Shown here piece by piece: positions 3,973 through 27,539 of a stretch of DNA of 64,000 nt. A program made the position numbers and the translations under genes. The notes beneath the pieces are model-generated. The model saw nothing but the letters and a program-made list of their open reading frames with translations, had not been told where the DNA came from and ran no database searches. Source of the DNA: Escherichia phage vB_EcoM_KWBSE43-6; sequence record NC_048186.1. The stretch is one strand, 5' to 3'. Each line of letters begins with the position of its first letter. The stretch's first letter is position 1.

Positions 3973-4314
3973 TTATCCAATGAGTGATGCTCGGAAGTCA
4001 AAGGTCGGGCGCGTCGCCCCCGGTTCCAGCACTTCTTCCAGATAACCGACATATTGTTTGACAACTACAGTCGGCTCGGCACGATTGGGCTTGGTTGCAC
4101 TCAGATCCAGAAGGCTGGAAGCCACCTGCTCTACAACAGTGCGCTTGATCTCAAAATGGTAGCGGCTCCCGAAGGCGGCGATCTTGACTTCATTAATTTT
4201 GAAGTCAGACAATTCACTGCTGTTCAACGTACCGATATTCAATTGTGAGCGCAGATGCTCAACAATGTTAGAATAAATGTACTGCGGTGTGATCAGCTGT
4301 TCAATAGAACTCAT
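3973..4314 (-). CDS. hypothetical protein
   Basis: 113-aa ORF, normal composition, in co-oriented early gene array. Confidence 0.5.
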   Translation of the reverse strand: MSSIEQLITPQYIYSNIVEHLRSQLNIGTLNSSELSDFKINEVKIAAFGSRYHFEIKRTVVEQVASSLLDLSATKPNRAEPTVVVKQYVGYLEEVLEPGATRPTFDFRASLIG

Positions 4315-9766: not shown

Positions 9767-9970
9767 TCATTTCCTTAAAAATAATTTATAGACAACAGGT
9801 ATCAAGAACGATAAGAAGCCGAACCAGTAAACCACATTCATGGTTTTCTTTTCTGCTTCTGATAGATCAATGAAACCATAATGATATACTATCATGGTTA
9901 ATAATGAGGCTAAACAAGTGATCGCCCCGACCAATAAAATTGCATCCAACCACTTGTTGTTCATCTTCAT
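9767..9970 (-). CDS. small membrane protein (two predicted TM helices)
   Basis: 67-aa ORF, hydrophobic segments. Confidence 0.5.
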   Translation of the reverse strand: MKMNNKWLDAILLVGAITCLASLLTMIVYHYGFIDLSEAEKKTMNVVYWFGFLSFLIPVVYKLFLRK

Positions 9971-10851
9971 TTCCTCAACATCATAGCCAGCACGTTAGAA
10001 CTTTTGGACAGCTGTTTCTTTTCATCAGCAGTCTTCTTGACAGTCGGGCGGCGGGTAGCCTTTTCCGGTACGCGATGCGCCAGCGGGTCTGAACCACCAA
10101 CTTCGCGTGTCATTGGATGGTCTTCGCAATACTTATAGAATTCTTTGAAGACGAACCCAGCGTCACGGACTTCATTGATGATCATGTGATGAATGGCATT
10201 GCCAATGACCCACAGCGGTGCGTCGAATGGCAATTGGGCAACTTCGCTGCCAACGCCGTTCTTTTTGTAGAGGACGTCCTGACCGCTGTATGAATCTACA
10301 ACGACATCCCAGCCCGCCGCCGCCATTTCAGATTTAGACTTTTCAAATTCTTTCTGATAAGACTCATTCCGAGTCCAGCCCGAATCCCCGGCTTCTTTAC
10401 CAGAACGCCCACGGATACGAGCATCATACTGATAACGATCCGGATACGTGAAGTACAACAGCGCCAGTTGCTCAATAGGATAATTGGCAAACAGCCATTC
10501 TGGACGCCATTTATCAGACAGCATCAACGGTTCACCCTCACAGACGAGCGTATATCCCGCGCTGAGATGTTCTTTGACCAGTTCGCGGGCGATATCACCA
10601 GAACCTGTCGCGGCATGGATAGCGTCCATCGAGGTCCACGAGGCAAGACCGGATTTGTTTGACGCAGTATACTGGCCGACAAACATTAATTTCAGTTCAT
10701 CAAAGGCCAGGCCAAACAGGCGCGTTTTATCGCCGATGGTATAAGTGACCTCGCGCGGCTCGAGGCGAGTACGCAGCCATTCTATGAACTGTACCACACG
10801 AGTGCCCTTGCCCGTGCCGCTTGTGCCTTTGATTACAATCAGTTTTGACAT
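9967..10851 (-). CDS. P-loop kinase; candidate 5-hydroxymethyluracil DNA kinase
   Basis: 294-aa ORF; Walker A GTSGTGKGT near N-terminus; ATG at 10851 confirmed. Confidence 0.55.
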   Translation of the reverse strand: MSKLIVIKGTSGTGKGTRVVQFIEWLRTRLEPREVTYTIGDKTRLFGLAFDELKLMFVGQYTASNKSGLASWTSMDAIHAATGSGDIARELVKEHLSAGYTLVCEGEPLMLSDKWRPEWLFANYPIEQLALLYFTYPDRYQYDARIRGRSGKEAGDSGWTRNESYQKEFEKSKSEMAAAGWDVVVDSYSGQDVLYKKNGVGSEVAQLPFDAPLWVIGNAIHHMIINEVRDAGFVFKEFYKYCEDHPMTREVGGSDPLAHRVPEKATRRPTVKKTADEKKQLSKSSNVLAMMLRK

Positions 10852-21415: not shown

Positions 21416-21934
21416 TTAGATGGTGTTCATATACAATGGTACTACTTGCTCAGCGATGAGAACGATCTCATTAATAGTAAAATCACCACCATAAGAATAC
21501 AACTTCATCTGCGCCCCGTTGGTTGCGAGGTTCCCTGCTTTGTCTACACTGAAAAATGTAATAAAGGAAAGTGTATCCGGTGGGGGTACGCTAGAATCAC
21601 GGCTTTTAGATAACTGGTTACCAGTAGAACCGACAAAATCCAATAGCATTGTCCTGTTGGCAGTAGAACCTGACCATGATCCGATTATATTCACTTTAAC
21701 AGGTAATATAGAGTCTACAGGAAATGCATGGAATTTATGATCAGAAAGTTTGAAGAAAGGAGATAAACCAGTTACAGATGCAGGATGGGGAGTTTTACCA
21801 TCCAATAAAGTCAACAAATCTACTCCGGTACTCCCGGCAGGTAAAGATGCAGTAAGCCCAGAAAATCTTACTTCTACTTTTATACGATGTGTCTGCAGCA
21901 TATTTCCCAAATATGGAGAAATTAAAATAGCCAT
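21416..21934 (-). CDS. hypothetical protein
   Basis: 172-aa ORF. Confidence 0.5.
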   Translation of the reverse strand: MAILISPYLGNMLQTHRIKVEVRFSGLTASLPAGSTGVDLLTLLDGKTPHPASVTGLSPFFKLSDHKFHAFPVDSILPVKVNIIGSWSGSTANRTMLLDFVGSTGNQLSKSRDSSVPPPDTLSFITFFSVDKAGNLATNGAQMKLYSYGGDFTINEIVLIAEQVVPLYMNTI

Positions 21935-21942
21935 AATTCCTC

Positions 21943-22179
21943 CTACGAAACTATTATAACAGAGTTAGCAGACGTTCCTTTAACCCAGCCAATGGTTGGT
22001 GGGGTAAGGACGATGATATTACCCTGATAAATGATATGAGATGCCGCCCCGGAAACGGGCGTCGTGGGGTTGTCGCACAAATACACGGAACCTTGAGTCA
22101 CTTGTAGTGTTTTCAAAGATGTGCCGTCAGAGACTTGAGTCCATGTACTCGCATCTAGAACTATTTTGGCAGTAGCCAT
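21943..22179 (-). CDS. hypothetical small protein
   Basis: ORF track 21943..22356 overlaps a tRNA; true start MATAKIV at 22179 with GGAGG SD. Confidence 0.5.
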   Translation of the reverse strand: MATAKIVLDASTWTQVSDGTSLKTLQVTQGSVYLCDNPTTPVSGAASHIIYQGNIIVLTPPTIGWVKGTSANSVIIVS

Positions 22180-22230
22180 AATACCCTCCAAATACAAGAC
22201 AATGGTATTGTTATTTATACCAACAAAAAA

Positions 22231-22256
22231 GAAGCCCGGTATCCTTACCGGGCTTT
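22231..22256 (-). terminator. rho-independent terminator downstream of tRNA cluster
   Basis: agcccgg...ccgggct stem followed by T-run on minus strand. Confidence 0.55.
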
Positions 22257-22307
22257 GATAAAGACCAAAATCACATGGCCTATTCGCAGTTATGCTACAC
22301 AGATTAT

Positions 22308-22381
22308 TGGAAGGAGCACCAGGATTCGAACCTGAGATCATGGGATCAAAGCCCATTGCCTTACCGCTTGGCTATGCTCCT
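22308..22381 (-). tRNA. tRNA-Gln (anticodon UUG), CCA encoded
   Basis: Manual cloverleaf: acceptor AGGAGCA/TGCTCCT, D-loop GCCAAGCGGTAAGGC, anticodon loop CUUUGAU, T-loop TTCGAAT. Confidence 0.8.
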
Positions 22382-22541
22382 AAAATTGGGAGAGGTACGC
22401 CAGAGTCGAACTGGAAACAGTATTTGACTGGATTATTTGCATTTAGGCCAGTCATCCCCTGTCTTTTGATCTCCACCCCATCTGCGGCCTGGTGCCGGAT
22501 GCACCCAACATTCAGGTTGCGGGAGAACATACCCCTTAATT

Positions 22542-22625
22542 TGGTGAGGGAGGATGGATTCGAACCACCGAAGCCGAAACACCTGATTTACAGTCAGGCC
22601 CATTTGACCACTCTGGTACTCCCCC
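22542..22625 (-). tRNA. tRNA-Tyr (anticodon GUA), long variable arm, CCA encoded
   Basis: Manual fold: anticodon arm CCTGA-CUGUAAA-TCAGG, long variable arm, T-loop TTCGAAT. Confidence 0.75.
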
Positions 22626-23043
22626 GAATTTGGACGGGCTTCTCACCCGATTGTGCATTTGATCTGCCGTAGCCCAACTCCCCGCGTCGTAACGCCGATT
22701 GGTTAACTGGCACCAGTGCCTTCTGGTGTGATCCCTTGGAACTTTACAGGCTTCGCGCCAAACCATTTCTGGTAGTTGGGGCATCGTTTCCGATGTAGGG
22801 TTCCCCCATTTTAACACAGCTGGCTGCAACGCTTACTGTGTTTGTATCAGAGTGTCCGGTGTAGCATTCCGTGAGGTGCGCACTACTGTAGCCTCTACAC
22901 TCTGAATTTGTATGAAGTGGGAATCACTCTCCTGGGTGTCTGTATCCTGCGGCCTTACATTGGCAGCTATCGCGCGATTCGCACTTCCGAAGGCGCTTTG
23001 AGACACTCCACTTCAATTTGATGATGCCACACCACGTCTGGTT

Positions 23044-23114
23044 TGTTGAATCCAGGATTCGAACCTGGGATACCTGCCTTACAGGCGAGTCGCTTTGCCT
23101 CAGCGTTATTCAAC
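23044..23114 (-). tRNA. tRNA, identity uncertain (anticodon loop CUGUAAG, possibly GUA; one mismatch in anticodon stem)
   Basis: Acceptor GTTGAAT/ATTCAAC, T-arm CCAGG-TTCGAAT-CCTGG; anticodon stem imperfect, could be a pseudo-tRNA. Confidence 0.5.
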
Positions 23115-23239
23115 TGGCACCAATTTGGTGGGCGTTACTTTCGTCGGTTTCAGATTCCGTTCGGCTATTGGACGTTGTTCCAAAGAACTTGTCGGTCGCG
23201 TACTTCGTGCTTACTCGCTTTCGTTTCACACCCATTGTC

Positions 23240-23315
23240 TGGCGATGGTGGCAGGACTTGAACCTGCGACATATGGATTAACAGTCCACCGTTCTACCGA
23301 CTGAACTACACCATC
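23240..23315 (-). tRNA. tRNA-Asn (anticodon GUU), CCA encoded
   Basis: Acceptor GATGGTG/CACCATC, D-arm GTTCAGTCGGTAGAAC, anticodon loop CUGUUAA, T-loop TTCAAGT. Confidence 0.8.
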
Positions 23316-23322
23316 ATCAATT

Positions 23323-23409
23323 TGGCGGAAAGTCTGAGATTCGAACTCAGGGGGCATTACACCCGACGATTTTCAAGACCGTTGCCTTAAACCGCTCGGC
23401 CAACTTTCC
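23323..23409 (-). tRNA. tRNA-Ser (anticodon UGA), long variable arm, CCA encoded
   Basis: Acceptor GGAAAGT/ACTTTCC, D-loop GCCGAGCGGTTTAAGGC, anticodon loop CUUGAAA, variable arm CGGGTGTAATGCCCC. Confidence 0.8.
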
Positions 23410-23415
23410 TTTGTA

Positions 23416-23501
23416 TGGTGGAAGATACAGGATTCGAACCTGTGCAACCTTTCGGTTGTACACCTTAGCAGGGTGCTGCAATACCGCTCTGCCAATCTTC
23501 C
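23416..23501 (-). tRNA. tRNA-Ser (anticodon GCU), long variable arm, CCA encoded
   Basis: Acceptor GGAAGAT/ATCTTCC, anticodon loop CUGCUAA, long variable arm, T-loop TTCGAAT. Confidence 0.75.
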
Positions 23502-23692
23502 TATTTATTCGCTTCTATGGCTCGAAGTTGCTTCTCAGCGTCTTCTTTGGATTCATGTGTTCCCAAAACCTTTGTTTTGGTATGGTCCAACACAACCCAA
23601 TGATCACCACGCTTTTCAACAAACTCAACAATTTCTTTGTTGTCAGTCGCAAGACCATCCCATTCAGTTAAGAACTCACCGAACGTTTTCAT
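23501..23692 (-). CDS. small hypothetical protein embedded in tRNA cluster
   Basis: ORF track 23501..23719 (non-ATG start); likely start MMKTFGEF at 23692; protein-like composition. Confidence 0.5.
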   Translation of the reverse strand: MKTFGEFLTEWDGLATDNKEIVEFVEKRGDHWVVLDHTKTKVLGTHESKEDAEKQLRAIEANK

Positions 23693-23919
23693 CATACTCA
23701 CCAATCGTTTATTGAACAACTGGTTTATTTAGGTGCTCCCGAGGCGGTATTTTAATCCCGCGATCCCATCTCGCCTGCCGTAGACCAGAGCTTGTTGGCA
23801 GTCCAACAAATTTGGCGGGGTCTGAGGATTTTCACCTCACCTGCTGGATTGGCCTCCAGCCGTTCTCTCTGGGGACTCGCCGTCCGGACAGCTATCCCTT
23901 AAACTATCGCCCCTTAATA

Positions 23920-23995
23920 TGGTGATCCTGATTGGTTTTGAACCAATGACCAATCGATTATGAGTCGACTGCTCTAACCACTGAGCTACAGGACC
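23920..23995 (-). tRNA. tRNA-Met/Ile-type (anticodon CAU), CCA encoded
   Basis: Acceptor GGTCCTG/CAGGATC, D-arm GCTCAGTGGTTAGAGC, anticodon loop CUCAUAA, T-loop TTCAAAA. Confidence 0.75.
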
Positions 23996-24007
23996 AAAAT
24001 CTTTTAA

Positions 24008-24118
24008 TTCATATTGTCGTGGACAATACCAAGACAGAGGGTTGGAATCTCTTATCCTATAGCGACCCATAAACCGTTTGATCAGTCCGGCCTAAAGGAT
24101 TACCCACGACAATATGAA
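24008..24118 (-). ncRNA. structured element: 15-bp perfect inverted repeat enclosing about 80 nt
   Basis: ttcatattgtcgtgg (24008-24022) is the reverse complement of ccacgacaatatgaa (24104-24118); no ORF; shares 11-mer ATCTCTTATCC with the element at 25175-25295. Confidence 0.35.
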
Positions 24119-25174
24119 CTGTTTACTCTTTGGTCTGGGGGAGGATTTACCTCCCCCATTCCTCCCGGTTTGGGCAGCGATCTCTCACTCAACCAGGGCG
24201 CCGGCAAATTTTAGATCAATTCTACAGGTTTGTAACCGCGCTGTCGCCAAGTCATGTTGCTTCTCCTATCATTATTTGACCGCACATATGGCGGGCCGGG
24301 TTGTAATAGTTGAGTTGTGAACAACCAAGGGCTGCTAGACCTTTTATCCCGTTTGCGCATGATCAGTTCATGCGAGTCTTATCAAGCACCTTACGGCAAC
24401 TCTTCTGGATGTCATCGCCCTGCTGCCAGGCTCATCCCAGGAGTTTATTTTTCCAGGGCTTTCCACTTACAAGTCTTAACCAGACCGGGATACGGGCTTG
24501 TAAGATCGGGTTGGACACAACTTTGAGGACACTGACGACGTCTACTAGTCACCCATAACTGATATTCGGATGCCAGTATCCTCAAAGTTGCAACCAATGT
24601 CGCAACTCGCAGCTTCCATACAGAAGCAACTTGTCCTCTAACGCTCGGACCAAACGAGGCTGGCTGGTTGATTCAGAGCCGCTGGTTGCTCCAGCAAGCA
24701 TGGGTTGATAGCCCGGCAACATAGAATCACCCAAAGATGAAGAACACTCAGTGGTACAAGCCAGGGATACCAATTTCAGGTCCTTTGCGAGTTCTTTAAT
24801 GCTCTTCATTTTGTGAACTTGAGAATACTATACCTGTCTCGGGTTTCCCCTTAGTACGGTCACTCATTGTTCGTCACACCAGGGAGCTACCCTTGATGGC
24901 CCGCTTATTTTGAGTTGTTCCTGGTGCCCACCAGTGTCCGGAATGTATAGGCATCGCAGTCTACAAGGCACTGATCTTTTTCGCCCAGCGCTCTCTCAAG
25001 TTCACAAATCGAAGTGCCCTGACTCAACAGTTGTGGCCCAACATATTGTTATCGTCTACCGGGCTGGCCGTCCACTTTGTAGATCAACCTTTGGGTTTAA
25101 GATAAATTGTCAAGGCACTTCGATTTGGGTGCCCTTCACCTGCCAGGGATCAGGGCTGATGGCAAGACTTCGCT

Positions 25175-25295
25175 CACATCTGGGAGGTATCTCTTATCCG
25201 GATTCGAACCGGATTTATCCTGGCAGAGGAATCTAACCCCTTCACCTTGTCTTCACAAGGACGGTCAACAGACCTCAAGATACCTCCCAGATGTG
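25175..25295 (-). ncRNA. structured element: 18-bp perfect inverted repeat enclosing a T-arm-like hairpin (tRNA-like fragment)
   Basis: cacatctgggaggtatct (25175-25192) vs agatacctcccagatgtg (25278-25295); internal ATCCGG-TTCGAAT-CCGGAT on the minus strand; no canonical cloverleaf. Confidence 0.35.
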
Positions 25296-25299
25296 GAGC

Positions 25300-25390
25300 C
25301 GTTTTAGGGAGTCGAACCCAAATGCTCGGCCAGCGCTGACCTTACATCCCACCTGACTTAGGCAACCCACCTCTGCTTACTCAGGAGCTT
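25300..25390 (-). ncRNA. tRNA-like fragment or tRNA pseudogene (T-arm GGG-TTCGACT-CCC, 3-prime ...GGCTCCA)
   Basis: T-loop motif present but no matching 5-prime acceptor strand found by hand. Confidence 0.25.
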
Positions 25391-25419
25391 ATCCCCTTTA
25401 GACAGTCAGATATAACGGC

Positions 25420-25510
25420 TTTGGGATTGGAGGGAGGAATCGAACCTCCCAGGGTGCTCCCCAAATCAGGGGCTGGCTCACGCCTGAAACCTGTTTAAGC
25501 ACCTGCTCCG
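25420..25510 (-). ncRNA. tRNA-like fragment or tRNA pseudogene (T-arm GGAGG-TTCGATT-CCTCC followed by ...CCCA)
   Basis: T-arm plus CCA-like end, but acceptor and anticodon arms not canonical. Confidence 0.25.
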
Positions 25511-25829
25511 CTCATTGTCGGCGGGAGATTATTAATCACACCCTCCCGCCTATTTTAGTGCGCCGAATTTTGTTATGAGGAATCGGAAGACCTCACTGAC
25601 TTATAGGCTATTACGCCGCCATCAGAACTACATCATCGTTTGCATTTATCTTTGTGGTCAGTTTCTAAAAACCCGCAAAGTCGCGCACAACGAGAACGAA
25701 AACCTGTTTGAGCACAAGACGCCATGTCCTGGATCACATCGAAGTGTTTGTCTAATGCCCAAACAGCTTTTCGCTTCAGTGGGTTAACTATACTTTGTTA
25801 ACCCTTATTGACAAAACTTTAAATTATTT

Positions 25830-25925
25830 TGCGGTGGTCGGAATCGAACCGACAGCTGGTTGAGCGCAGAGTCTTAGGAGAAGGTGCTAACCCGACCATC
25901 ACCAGCAAGCGTCGCACGGGACGCC
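25830..25925 (-). ncRNA. tRNA-like fragment or tRNA pseudogene (T-arm GTCGG-TTCGATT-CCGAC)
   Basis: T-arm present; remainder does not fold into a cloverleaf by hand. Confidence 0.25.
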
Positions 25926-26431
25926 TATCCTCGTCTGCCTATGTTCGCACACCATTCCTGTGCGTTCACCGCAATCTAATTTACCGGAACTTACGCATCC
26001 AGCCTCGCCCTGTTGGCGCTCCTAGAATCCGGGAAGACAGTAGGAACAATTATGTTACCAACAGGAAACCTTTGTGTTGCCCTTTGACGCAACATTATGA
26101 ACCCTCTTTAGAAGACTCATAATGTTGTCGGTGTGATGAGGATTACCAGCCCTCGACCTTCCCATCGTGCGGTGTCGACTCGCCGCCGGGATGCTCTCGT
26201 TCCTCTCCTGTAGATCGATATCAGGCAACCAACAGTGGTAACTTTCTGAGCTAATCACACTTTCAACAGGGAGTTTCGTTCTCCGACGGTCAGTGCGTCC
26301 ACTAACACCAGCAGGGTTACTGCGCTGCCTCTATTCACACAAGCCCCTGAGACTAGGGATTAACTGGTTTCGGGTTCAAGCCTACTCCCACTGTGCTGTT
26401 TCCCTTGAAATTTTATGATACTGCAACACGG

Positions 26432-26605
26432 CTAATTTGAAAAGTCCTCTCCTCTTGAGCAACAGGACCTGAAATCCTGCGGCGAACCTCTGCTCAAAAC
26501 CCGGTGCGCTATCGAAGGCGCTTTGCCAGAGTAAACATCGGGTGTTCCTAGGAGAGTGAAGGCCATCCCGATGATGAGGATAAGGAGTAACGCTATGATT
26601 ATCAT
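26432..26605 (-). CDS. small hydrophobic membrane peptide, 57 aa, not in ORF track
   Basis: Manual translation MIIIALLLILIIGMAFTLLGTPDVYSGKAPS...; strong SD GGGAGGG 7 nt upstream of ATG. Confidence 0.45.
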   Translation of the reverse strand: MIIIALLLILIIGMAFTLLGTPDVYSGKAPSIAHRVLSRGSPQDFRSCCSRGEDFSN

Positions 26606-26662
26606 ACTGTTCCCTCCCTTCCATGCAACTTACTTTACTGTAATTCTGTATTGAATAAAGCG

Positions 26663-27232
26663 TTATTTTACCACAGAAAACTTCACAACCTTCTCTAGGA
26701 TAAACACATATTCCTGAGCAGCTGAATTCGACATATAATGCGTAGACGGAATAGAATGTGAATTCGTTGTTTCGCCCAGATTAACGCGGTCACACCAGCC
26801 ATTGATGGCATTACCGTAGAAGCCGATGATCGCAACGAAGTAGATGCGCTGGCTTTCTGGTTCCAGAACATAGTTGATCGTGAACGCAGTGTCCGTGCGG
26901 ACGGCTTCCAGTTTGATCCCAATACGACATTCCGGCATGTTGGGACGAACATATAAATGACGGAAGCGGTCGCGGCGGGCGGTGGAAGATTGTTCCAGTT
27001 CGTTGCGGAACTCACTCGTGACGTCGATGTTAAATGAAAAGGTGTTGTGTTTCATATCGGAACGAGCAAGGGAAACCGCATTGTCGATAACGCGACGGAA
27101 ATTTACCCCTTTATTTGTCAGGAGTTTAACTTCCTCAGCAATTGTCGTCAAAGAAATTTTGGTGGCTTGTTGTCCTTCATATTTTTCTAACAAAGGAATG
27201 ACGTGTTTCATAACTGCGGTGTTAATGTGCAT
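26663..27232 (-). CDS. hypothetical protein
   Basis: ORF track 26663..27271; likely start MHINTAV at 27232 with GAGGA SD. Confidence 0.55.
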   Translation of the reverse strand: MHINTAVMKHVIPLLEKYEGQQATKISLTTIAEEVKLLTNKGVNFRRVIDNAVSLARSDMKHNTFSFNIDVTSEFRNELEQSSTARRDRFRHLYVRPNMPECRIGIKLEAVRTDTAFTINYVLEPESQRIYFVAIIGFYGNAINGWCDRVNLGETTNSHSIPSTHYMSNSAAQEYVFILEKVVKFSVVK

Positions 27233-27539
27233 AATAAGATCCTCTTGTAGAATTGAAATAAACGCCATCATTATAATAGAACGATTGTTATTGAATATTG
27301 GTCTCTAAATTACAGGAGTGTTTTATTAATAGGCAGAAACTACTTTTCTAACACATCTCTAGACTGTATGCTAACGCTGTGCCCTTCGAGTTGTGAGTGT
27401 CAACGAACAACGAGAAGCAGCCTCCCTGGCTGTGGAAGGGTGCCAGCCCGCACAGGGCGGTCTTACGAGCGAAGCGAGTTGATTAATATATTTGATAATA
27501 ACGCGCGCGAGAGTAAATTCCTTTCTCTGTCTTCAACAG

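Follow-up and report, generated by a model that had tools for sequence, protein, structure and literature searches.

We analysed a stretch of 64,000 nucleotides (nt) of Escherichia phage vB_EcoM_KWBSE43-6 (NC_048186.1), referred to as the window, with the focus on positions 23996-26430. This region is located directly upstream, on the minus strand, of an array of seven tRNA genes (22308-23995, all minus strand, called by ARAGORN and Rfam) and is bounded by a small conserved open reading frame (ORF, 26432-26605), beyond which a Vi01_177 homologue follows (26663-27271). The window is 97.8% identical to phage phi1_175010 and belongs to a Klebsiella Taipeivirus of the Ackermannviridae. An equivalent gap between baseplate-wedge and tail-needle genes is present in all Ackermannviridae examined, with a size from ~0.46 kb in a Yersinia phage to more than 4 kb. 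A sequence-only reading of this DNA had described the region as ORF-poor and highly structured; absent from it was the element in the middle of the region that forms the main subject here, and the strand relevant to structure has to be corrected to the minus strand. The element resembles the coding piece of a transfer-messenger RNA (tmRNA), and its 5' arm is complementary to the tmRNA of the host, encoded by ssrA. It is embedded in a series of structured small-RNA cassettes, which we describe after it.

The tmRNA-like element and the search for a tRNA-like domain

In a distant BLAST search of the region, hundreds of unrelated phages matched, and only over ~25528-25704. This interval falls within an element with the following features:

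25520-25705, minus strand: tmRNA-like element, ~190 nt
25697-25773, minus strand: leader helix of Ackermannviridae, CGAAAAGCUGUUUGGGCA (25773-25756) with UGCUCAAACAGGUUUUCG (25714-25697), 17/18 paired, read from the sequence
25664-25705, minus strand: 5' antisense arm AGGUUUUCGUUCUCGUUGUGCGCGACUUUGCGGGUUUUUAGA, complementary to host ssrA nt 68-104 (67-104 in the alignment of the reverse complement)
25608-25643, minus strand: resume codon GCA (25643-25641), tag frame ANDDVVLMAA (25643-25614) and stop codons UAA UAG (25613-25608), from the alignment of copies
25596-25625, minus strand: helix-5-like hairpin with the stop codons in its loop, outer stem 25625-25622/25599-25596, from covariation
25558-25596, minus strand: pseudoknot, hairpin 25596-25575 with loop CCGA (25586-25583) pairing with UCGG (25566-25563), from covariation
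25520-25550, minus strand: 3' hairpin with the conserved loop GGUGUGAUUAAUAA, from covariation

The RNA around the tag reads AUAAAU GCA AAC GAU GAU GUA GUU CUG AUG GCG GCG UAA UAG; the corresponding tag of E. coli tmRNA is ANDENYALAA. The 17 distinct DNA versions found among the copies always comprise ten codons with a stop at codon 11 and a tag ending in A, and their peptides follow the pattern A-N-D-[DN]-x-[FMV]-[LMK]-[AVM]-[AV]-A. Codons vary synonymously (GCU/GCC/GCG, GUU/GUA/GUC, CUG/UUG), and pairwise single-nucleotide codon differences, not corrected for phylogeny, amount to 224 synonymous versus 90 non-synonymous ones. Before the resume codon, U-5 and A-4 are invariant in 23/23 sequences; these positions equal U85 and A86 of E. 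coli tmRNA, which set the reading frame, A86 being the key determinant (PMC2481249).

The structure around the frame is maintained by compensatory changes. All four outer pairs of the stop-codon hairpin are compensatory (97.6% of cells paired), as are three of the five pairs of the pseudoknot stem, all four pairs between pseudoknot loop and downstream strand (CG/GC, CG/UA, GC/AU/CG, AU/GC) and all four stem pairs of the 3' hairpin, whose loop is kept across phage families. Taken together, the four helices comprise 17 pairs, of which 15 are compensatory, with 95.6% of cells paired in 23 sequences from at least five phage families. The covariation score of the element is 0.61, compared to at most 0.18 in slid controls, and was reached by none of 500 shuffles. 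Equivalents of the tmRNA pseudoknots PK1, PK3 and PK4 were not found in the element, in which the stop hairpin and one downstream pseudoknot covary, and a brute-force covariation search yielded no supported helix (P2) closing its 5' and 3' parts. In Shigella phage MK-13 (L008, ~4075-4180), the 3' hairpin with its GGUGUGAUUAAUAA loop occurs as a tandem duplicate, and in P1 two hairpins carry GUGUGAUUAA.

The element is present in 721 of 50,697 phage records, covering Ackermannviridae, Felixounavirus and relatives, P1/P7/SJ46, N4-like phages and several siphophage groups, as well as in 656 of 5,426 complete E. coli genomes, with 554 places on plasmids and 150 on chromosomes. It resides either beside tRNA genes or between the Q and holin genes. 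The former applies to P1, the Felix-O1-like phage wV8, an N4-like phage and a Skatevirus, where the matching DNA carries no annotation and precedes tRNA genes of the same strand; the latter applies to E. coli 55989, where the element sits in a lambdoid prophage, flanked by the genes for the Q antiterminator and the holin. No record annotates the element; what P1 has annotated is an adjoining 'dicF-like region'. In the 55989 prophage (L137:2920-3390), the element is located between two copies of a long hairpin, CACAACAGGUAAGAGCA...UGCUCUUAUCGUUGUG, and is followed by a tRNA-like RNA of 126 nt (acceptor UGUGGUG/CGCCACA, canonical D-arm, T-arm, 3' ACCCA), which resembles the cassette I6 described below.

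Rfam tmRNA models matched the element below threshold in every locus tested (five independent loci); the best match, tmRNA_permuted, reaches 25.5 bits versus a gathering score of 47, with other models at 10-16 bits. At gathering and permissive thresholds alike, Rfam gave only tRNAs and sub-threshold tmRNA matches. Neither the window nor any member of the family yielded a tmRNA with ARAGORN, which does call tmRNAs in other contigs having the same 17-mer around the resume codon. When IMG/VR was scanned with this 17-mer, nearly every match had a tmRNA-like tag, and ARAGORN called true permuted tmRNAs in most of the matches with longer tags and in none with the 10-residue tags of the family. Dozens of environmental viral contigs (L014-L126) carry ARAGORN-called permuted tmRNAs with tags such as ANDNFA...ALAA, and those of L017 (~9960-10320) and L048 appear to be phage-encoded, with protein-coding-looking flanks.

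With the coding piece of permuted, two-piece tmRNAs (RF04321, RF00023, RF01849), the element has in common the sequence UAAAU directly before GCA with U-5/A-4, a tag of ten codons that starts with AND(D/N) and ends in Ala, the stop codons in a helix-5-like hairpin followed by a pseudoknot, and the location among tRNA genes. In contrast to them, it has no acceptor stem, T-arm or CCA and spans only ~190 nt, and where they have half of a tRNA-like domain, its 5' part is antisense to host tmRNA. A custom scan of family members gave no consistent acceptor stem plus T-arm near the element, and several members are without any T-arm at -400 to +600 nt. Just upstream of the conserved 5' end, wV8 and KFS-SE2 carry a promoter-like sequence and P1 a terminator-like hairpin, which leaves no room for an acceptor strand. 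As candidates for the tRNA-like domain we considered a one-piece and a permuted arrangement, the neighbouring cassette tl3 as an RNA consisting of this domain only, I6, and a gene of wV8, none of which was consistent across the family. The wV8 gene is unannotated, tRNA-like and situated just downstream of the element (L004:2355-2433, minus strand). It carries C1-G72, G2-C71, G3·U70, A73 and an encoded CCA, i.e. alanine-type identity features, and scores 31.7 bits with the Rfam tRNA model while being ARAGORN-negative; in the close relatives L094 and L112 an ordinary tRNA is found instead.

These observations bear on the possibility of a true two-piece tmRNA that acts independently of host tmRNA, with the element as its coding piece and a neighbouring tRNA-like cassette as its acceptor piece (tl3, tl2 or I6 in the window, the 126-nt RNA in the 55989 prophage). 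Such an arrangement would fit the true permuted tmRNAs with the same resume context in environmental phage contigs, the best Rfam match being tmRNA_permuted, the expanded tRNA-like RNAs adjoining the element in several contexts and the repetition, within tl3, of 16 nt that adjoin the antisense arm. However, no companion is conserved across the family, several members have no T-arm in the interval scanned, and G3·U70 together with ACCA is confined to the one wV8-specific gene, whose place is taken by an ordinary tRNA in close relatives. We found the pieces to share no pairing, and an antisense arm specific for the host would be left unexplained. We therefore regard a self-contained two-piece tmRNA as improbable.

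Complementarity to host tmRNA and its possible consequences

The arm of the window has an antisense score of 39.5 against host ssrA, compared with 17.6 ± 2.9 for shuffles, none of 500 reaching it, and constitutes the top ssrA-related site in the whole 64 kb. Over 20 distinct arms, scores of 31-47 were obtained (shuffles ~16.5 ± 2.8), and for 17 of them none of 500 shuffles was at or above the observed value. The site is always ssrA nt 68-106, a stretch comprising the 3' side of PK1 and the A-rich linker together with the resume codon (nt 90) and codons 1-6. The invariant motif of the family, (U)AGUUUUCGU(C), exactly complements GAC GAA AAC UA. In the sense orientation, similarity between element and ssrA is at background, and the arms likewise score at background level on three permuted tmRNAs of phages and on the RNA of the element itself. 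The predicted duplex of the window arm has a free energy of -35 kcal/mol with the host segment versus -17 to -18 kcal/mol with its own segment; full-length arms in general reach -33 to -38 with the host and -14 to -22 with their own, and in cofolding the heterodimer is predicted to gain 14-17 kcal/mol over the separate monomers. The 39-nt target is found without mismatch in Klebsiella, Escherichia, Citrobacter, Kluyvera, Kosakonia and other genomes. We also considered GUUUUCG as the 'GGUUUCGAC' motif of a tmRNA 5' end, with the upstream hairpin as a vestigial closed acceptor stem. This was dropped, as no sense similarity to ssrA rises above background and the host codons GAC GAA AAC are perfectly complementary to the motif.

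In Ackermannviridae, the leader helix upstream of and overlapping the arm encloses a small hairpin (25731-25715), and its pairing is also seen in the alignment of a chance mir-578 match. Its sequence is invariant, and the pairing between seed and leader suggests a closed precursor form. The conserved 3' loop could in turn pair, via UGAUUAA, with UUAAUCA of ssrA (L144), a 7-nt match with an estimated chance expectation of ~9%, which makes it no more than a lead.

A second subfamily of tag RNAs without tRNA-like domain (tag ANDDSFEVARLAA; L075 ~10580-10780, L028, L130) starts directly after a tRNA gene. Its arm carries AUUGUUCGUC, the perfect complement of GACGAACAAU in ANDEQYALAA-type tmRNAs, and scores higher on this type than on E. 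coli tmRNA, while the main family shows the reverse. Since the two subfamilies prefer different tmRNA types, the arm appears to follow the version of the host tmRNA.

We propose a model in which the phage RNA pairs with host tmRNA and either blocks or replaces its tag template. The arm would anneal to host tmRNA nt ~68-106 across the resume codon, and the host tag template would be occluded in a manner comparable to that of synthetic anti-ssrA oligonucleotides. These oligonucleotides, used in cell-free translation and ribosome display, are likewise complementary to tmRNA and suppress trans-translation, i.e. the trans-translational release of stalled ribosomes (PMC3384345). Pairing of the resume-codon region has furthermore been proposed as the explanation for an inactive E. 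coli tmRNA mutant (PMC2481249). Given the oligonucleotide precedent and this explanation, template blocking is the minimal consequence to be expected. The phage element differs from the oligonucleotides in being a natural, phage-encoded structured RNA with a substitute tag template.

Blocking could also be all that the element does: it would then be only an antisense inhibitor or decoy of trans-translation, and its tag frame an untranslated evolutionary leftover. The arm, the effect of the oligonucleotides and the missing tRNA-like domain are in line with this. A relic, however, would not be expected to keep an invariant ten-codon length, stop position, U-5 and A-4 and to display an excess of synonymous changes over 17 DNA versions from at least five phage families. 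We consider such a decoy unlikely, though less so than the two-piece tmRNA.

Between the end of the arm and the phage resume codon lie ~20 nt, and between ssrA nt 68 and the host resume codon 22 nt. Ribosomes rescued by host alanyl-tmRNA/SmpB could thereby be redirected to add the phage-encoded tag. As the tag frame is kept together with U-5/A-4 and the linker lengths are similar, we favour a swap of the template on the host tRNA-like domain as the use of the frame, but this step is speculative. In its full form, in which a 'tag-swap' RNA of phages infecting Enterobacterales and related hosts would dock by base pairing on host alanyl-tmRNA, cover the host template, present its own resume codon at the native distance and add AANDDVVLMAA or variants, we put it forward as a tentative and rather doubtful possibility. 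If it were true, rescue would proceed and a tag chosen by the phage would alter recognition by proteases and adaptors, making up a bipartite host-virus tmRNA.

An array of structured RNA cassettes around the element

To describe the surroundings of the element, 19 segments of the region were mapped onto 21 related Ackermannviridae loci; a search for related loci based on the flanking protein had yielded only five close relatives. In 5' to 3' direction of the minus strand, the region and its borders contain:

26140-26430, minus strand: U1, conserved structured segment starting right after the ORF 26432-26605 (relatives, RNAalifold)
26090-26127, minus strand: I7, 18-bp hairpin, with covarying hairpins adjoining at ~26130-26200 (z = -5.7)
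25829-25974, minus strand: I6, tRNA-like cassette (stem search, folding)
25787-25814, minus strand: promoter-like site TTGTCA-16-TATAGT, the best sigma-70 match in 23400-27400 (10/12)
25422-25519, minus strand: tl3, cassette with T-arm 25450-25432 and the 3' end ...UCCAAUCCCA (stem search, folding)
25294-25419, minus strand: tl2, tRNA-like RNA (folding, relatives)
25175-25295, minus strand: I5, perfect 18-bp closing stem around four hairpins, carrying GGAUAAGAGAU (z = -7.5)
25005-25127, minus strand: I4, 19-bp closing stem around a branched interior (z = -6.05)
24795-25023, minus strand: I1, ~230 nt with 9 helices (covariation)
24604-24794, minus strand: M11, structured segment (relatives, RNAalifold)
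24511-24597, minus strand: I2, hairpin RNA with a long 24-bp stem (z = -6.3; 3 compensatory pairs)
24320-24504, minus strand: M13, structured segment kept as far as Dickeya PP35 (RNAalifold)
24124-24319, minus strand: M14, structured segment, variably present (RNAalifold)
24008-24118, minus strand: I3, 20-bp closing stem around two hairpins, carrying GGAUAAGAGAU (z = -4.5)
23920-23995, minus strand: tRNA-Met (CAU), the first canonical tRNA downstream (ARAGORN, Rfam)
23800-23919, minus strand: D1, conserved segment just 3' of tRNA-Met and outside the region (comparison of relatives)

The description of the region as poor in ORFs holds, the longest ORF having 108 aa and none being conserved. Pfam gave nothing for 23996-26430, and matches to PHROG were restricted to tiny families with no assigned function. 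A protein-coding gene concealed by frameshifts or unusual decoding could be suspected from the up to 15 'hypothetical proteins' annotated in close relatives and from the weak PHROG matches. The ORF with the best of these matches (26058-26258, minus strand), which overlaps I7, however, is without ATG or frameshifted in Vi01, CBA120, SKML-39 and others by indels that respect a hairpin in being located in its loop, and substitutions in the region track base pairing, not codons. ORFs, Pfam, PHROG and substitution pattern thus lend such a gene no support, and we attach next to no likelihood to it. In PQ066595.1 (phi1_175010) and other relatives, 11-15 'hypothetical proteins' are annotated across the array, and phrog_38060, phrog_26260 and phrog_23857 probably derive from spurious calls on conserved RNA genes.

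Structure is pronounced, as had been claimed: the five cassettes with fold z of -4.5 to -7.5 were matched in stability by none of 200 shuffles, and each module folds more stably on the minus than on the plus strand. Both inverted repeats reported before were recovered, the first as 24008-24027/24099-24118 (20 nt, 90% complementary, including the perfect 15-mer) and the second as 25175-25192/25278-25295 (18 nt, 100% complementary, 85 nt between the arms). To these we add five further long closing stems, 24511-24534/24574-24597, 24801-24824/24994-25017, 25005-25023/25109-25127, 25820-25836/25967-25983 and 26090-26107/26110-26127. The 11-mer ATCTCTTATCC that both repeats were said to enclose has indeed exactly two copies in 64 kb (24047-24057, 25189-25199), compared with 0.02 in shuffles, none of 100 reaching two; beyond it, I3 and I5 have no evident similarity by eye. 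More generally, GGAUAAG(AGAU)/GGAUAGG recurs on the minus strand in the four cassettes I3, I5, tl2 and I6 (24047-24057, 25189-25199, 25388-25394, 25924-25930) and may represent a shared protein-binding or tertiary-contact motif.

The T-arm-like motifs, noted before at four positions, amount to five within the region, all on the minus strand (25200, 25228, 25308, 25436, 25840). With up to one mismatch, GGTTCGAWTCC occurs ten times in the window versus 2.8 expected; nine of the ten are on the minus strand, four inside real tRNAs and five in 23996-26430. No cloverleaf accompanies them, as had also been stated, since neither ARAGORN nor Rfam (RF00005, even at E <= 1) calls a tRNA in 23996-26430. 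Instead, tl2 and I6 consist of an acceptor stem of 7-8 bp directly abutting a T-arm, the only cloverleaf parts present, together with expanded interiors. In tl2, the acceptor stem (25419-25413/25304-25298) is combined with two long internal arms, a T-arm (25319-25307), the discriminator U and an encoded CCA (25296-25294). In I6, an 8-bp acceptor stem (25974-25967/25836-25829) is combined with a D-arm-like hairpin, an expanded interior and a T-arm (25853-25837) and there is no CCA. The hairpins of I5 include a canonical T-arm (25213-25197) and a second T-loop-like hairpin (25240-25226).

T-arm motifs lacking cloverleaves and the variable size of the region among relatives would be expected if it consisted of decaying tRNA pseudogenes and functionless spacer, and degenerated tRNA genes were one of the three candidates named in the sequence-only reading. 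We give this very little credence. Compensatory changes keep the helices, including those of expanded interiors, some cassettes retain 95-100% identity between genera next to diverging flanks, and the core element is common to unrelated phage families. In particular, tl2 keeps 95-98% identity in nearly all relatives carrying it, among them phages of Klebsiella, Salmonella and E. coli (83% in Shigella phage MK-13), with flanks at 76-82%, a pattern that decay of tRNAs would not produce.

Covariation was counted formally for I1, in which 99.1% of the cells of 57 pairs are paired, compared to 32-45% in slid controls, and 16 pairs show double-sided changes versus 0-4; none of 500 shuffles reaches its score, and it has no Rfam match. 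Its helices contain 52 G·U cells but lack A·C cells altogether, which fits a minus-strand RNA and neither a DNA cruciform nor a plus-strand transcript. By RNAalifold, nearly all modules with enough distinct homologues display compensatory changes: 6/31 pairs in I7 with two pairs having non-canonical cells (12 distinct sequences), 6/42 in M13 with one such pair (12 distinct sequences), 5/38 in tl2, four of 44 in I3 with ten one-sided changes and no non-canonical pair (3 distinct sequences), seven pairs in U1 against 18 with some non-canonical cells, five in M14 against ten, and three in I4 against 11 in its interior. D1 has three compensatory pairs and a fold z of only -1.5, and through it the structured non-coding stretch continues past tRNA-Met to ~23800. 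For tl3, the fold z is -0.8.

Could the inverted repeats instead be features of the DNA, such as miniature mobile elements, targets or scars of homing endonucleases, or a replication origin with cruciforms? Cassettes are inserted and deleted as units, HNH endonuclease genes occur in the region in relatives and the plus-strand folds are strongly non-random as well. However, every cassette is single-copy in 64 kb with arms that differ between cassettes and behave as RNA helices, covariation extends into the interiors, the G·U cells of I1 fit RNA from one strand only, and shuffling by endonucleases would account for the mobility without transposon cassettes. A DNA-level explanation thus has a slim chance at most. 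From the candidates of the sequence-only reading, processed structured non-coding RNAs are supported by helix covariation, the strand shared with the tRNA array and G·U without A·C, whereas degenerated tRNA genes describe the region poorly and miniature inverted-repeat elements find no support.

The comparison of relatives that had been suggested to detect insertion polymorphism showed that cassettes are gained and lost as discrete units and shuffled, producing a patchwork of presence and absence among the 21 loci. U1 is found in every Ackermannviridae locus having the region, including Erwinia Bue1 (70% identity, 99% coverage) and Yersinia CAU_YEP3 (86% identity, 56% coverage). At the other extreme, I5 is present in only 4/22 loci; I6 is missing as an exact unit (25830-25978) in L002 (K5lambda5) and L008 (MK-13) and most other relatives are without it; tl3 is present only in the window, L002, L132 and L140, being 99% identical in Salmonella phage SP1 and absent from most Klebsiella relatives. 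I3 is variably present. About half of the loci lack D1, which is 89-100% identical where carried (Vi01 96%, Dickeya 93%, MK-13 89%) and is better conserved than the adjoining protein gene. Besides the tmRNA-like element, the sole match of the region outside the Ackermannviridae is 24460-24508, of which 49 nt are 95.9% identical to the 144-kb Klebsiella phage KP13-26.

Relatives carry further insertions in their arrays. An STnc100 RNA (RF02076) of ~215 nt scores above the Rfam gathering threshold in L001:3506-3720, L002:3394-3607, L134:8759-8972 and L143:4613-4827, at a position corresponding to ~24610 of the window, i.e. in M11; Rfam does not find it in the window, and P1 has a sub-threshold match near tRNAs (L003:1278-1397). 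HNH homing-endonuclease genes are inserted at L143:3032-3592, L140:2526-2996 and L138:4526-4939. Such a gene splits the tmRNA-like element in 0507-KN2-1, lies just upstream of the element in SP1 and abuts tRNA-Met in CBA120; HNH endonucleases could drive the shuffling of cassettes. The element of the window is bracketed by a direct repeat of 16 nt (25487-25502 and 25700-25715, 94% identity; RNA GUGCUYAAACAGGUUU). One copy, GUGCUUAAACAGGUUU (25502-25487), is part of tl3, and its partner (25715-25700) adjoins and overlaps the start of the antisense arm. The repeat could have been left by an insertion or could represent a functional motif that was duplicated.

The promoter-like site and the first ~50 nt downstream of it are conserved even in Dickeya PP35, whose downstream RNA differs and comprises no tmRNA-like element. 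No intrinsic terminator was found on the minus strand of the region. The CCA of tl3 is followed after 2 nt by the acceptor stem of tl2, and the CCA of tl2 overlaps the first bases of the I5 stem. We infer that the cassettes would be co-transcribed with the tRNAs, partly from the promoter at 25814-25787, and that tRNA-processing enzymes would then cut them apart like a tRNA precursor, as their tRNA-like ends abut one another.

Small stable RNAs within phage tRNA clusters have precedents. Phage T4 encodes 'species 1 and 2' (rnaC, rnaD), which have tRNA-like 3' ends; compared by description only, the array here has many more cassettes, several of which are closed by stems of 18-24 bp. GOLLD, ROOL and YrlA, a bacterial Y RNA and tRNA mimic, are structured RNAs associated with tRNA genes of phages or prophages, YrlA combining a long terminal stem with a T-arm-containing tRNA-like module. 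I5 resembles YrlA in this combination, but the array is modular, unlike a single large fold. No match to YrlA, GOLLD or ROOL was obtained with Rfam in the window at gathering score, nor at E <= 1 in 21500-27500. The cassettes could still be, as in GOLLD and ROOL, the domains of a single very large ornate RNA or of a few such RNAs, which would be consistent with ~2.6 kb of continuous structure beside tRNAs, the missing minus-strand terminator and conservation along the whole stretch. Each module has its own long closing stem, however, and is individually dispensable among close relatives, an internal promoter-like site is present and the tRNA-like CCA ends imply processing; together with the missing Rfam match, this leaves us with a low expectation of a large RNA, about as low as for DNA-level features.

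Weighing of the model and its significance

As the best explanation of the whole, we regard 23996-26430 as a minus-strand mosaic of independent structured small-RNA cassettes that continues the tRNA cluster, one of which would encode an RNA pairing with host tmRNA to block or replace the tag template. To this combined model we assign a probability of roughly 60%.

Several points weigh against it. Its support comes from sequence architecture, covariation, peptide conservation and predicted pairing, and the conservation of the tag peptide, which partly overlaps a helix, is uncorrected for phylogeny. The reference for the host target was an annotated ssrA of E. coli. Three weaker arms (L004, L087, L111) have shorter complementarity, although a seed of 10-11 nt is kept, and the z values of duplex energies (-1.3 to -6.7 relative to mononucleotide shuffles) are modest, since arms rich in U readily pair with a target rich in A. 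Part of this target sits in pseudoknot PK1 and may be inaccessible, and in Ackermannviridae the seed of the arm is itself sequestered in the leader helix of 17/18 bp. Among the cassettes, tl3, I5 and I6 are represented by too few distinct homologues to reveal covariation. Finally, we know of no precedent for translation of a tag from an RNA without tRNA-like domain.

In a 2014 census of 543 RefSeq phages, ssrA was found only in eight mycobacteriophages, with Bacillus phage G and DS6A named as two more outside the dataset, and only the opposite truncation was described, an RNA of DS6A consisting of the tRNA-like domain only (PMC4131195). A 2025 tmRNA database paper again mentions forms without coding sequence and, in the passages searched, none without tRNA-like domain. 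The 'TLD-only' tmRNA of mycobacteriophage DS6A is likewise a phage-encoded partial tmRNA (PMC4131195; PMC11915505), but a mirror image of the family described here: DS6A keeps the tRNA-like domain without a tag frame, our family keeps the reverse, and the action proposed here is base pairing and not titration of SmpB. In the literature searched, of which coverage was partial so that an earlier description is possible, we found no description of the element, of a natural tmRNA-targeting RNA or of a tag template without its tRNA half.

Stretches beside phage tRNA arrays that seem 'empty' can hence be dense arrays of conserved structured RNAs, I1 being an example without known family, and present gene callers fill them with hypothetical proteins that are spurious. 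Bacteria rescue their ribosomes mainly by trans-translation, which some phages are known to need for growth. The architecture of the element suggests that phages tamper with bacterial ribosome rescue. If the model is true, P1, Felix O1, ViI/CBA120-like and N4-like phages and lambdoid prophages would carry an unnoticed regulator of host protein quality control, its carriers including model and therapeutic phages as well as 12% of complete E. coli genomes.

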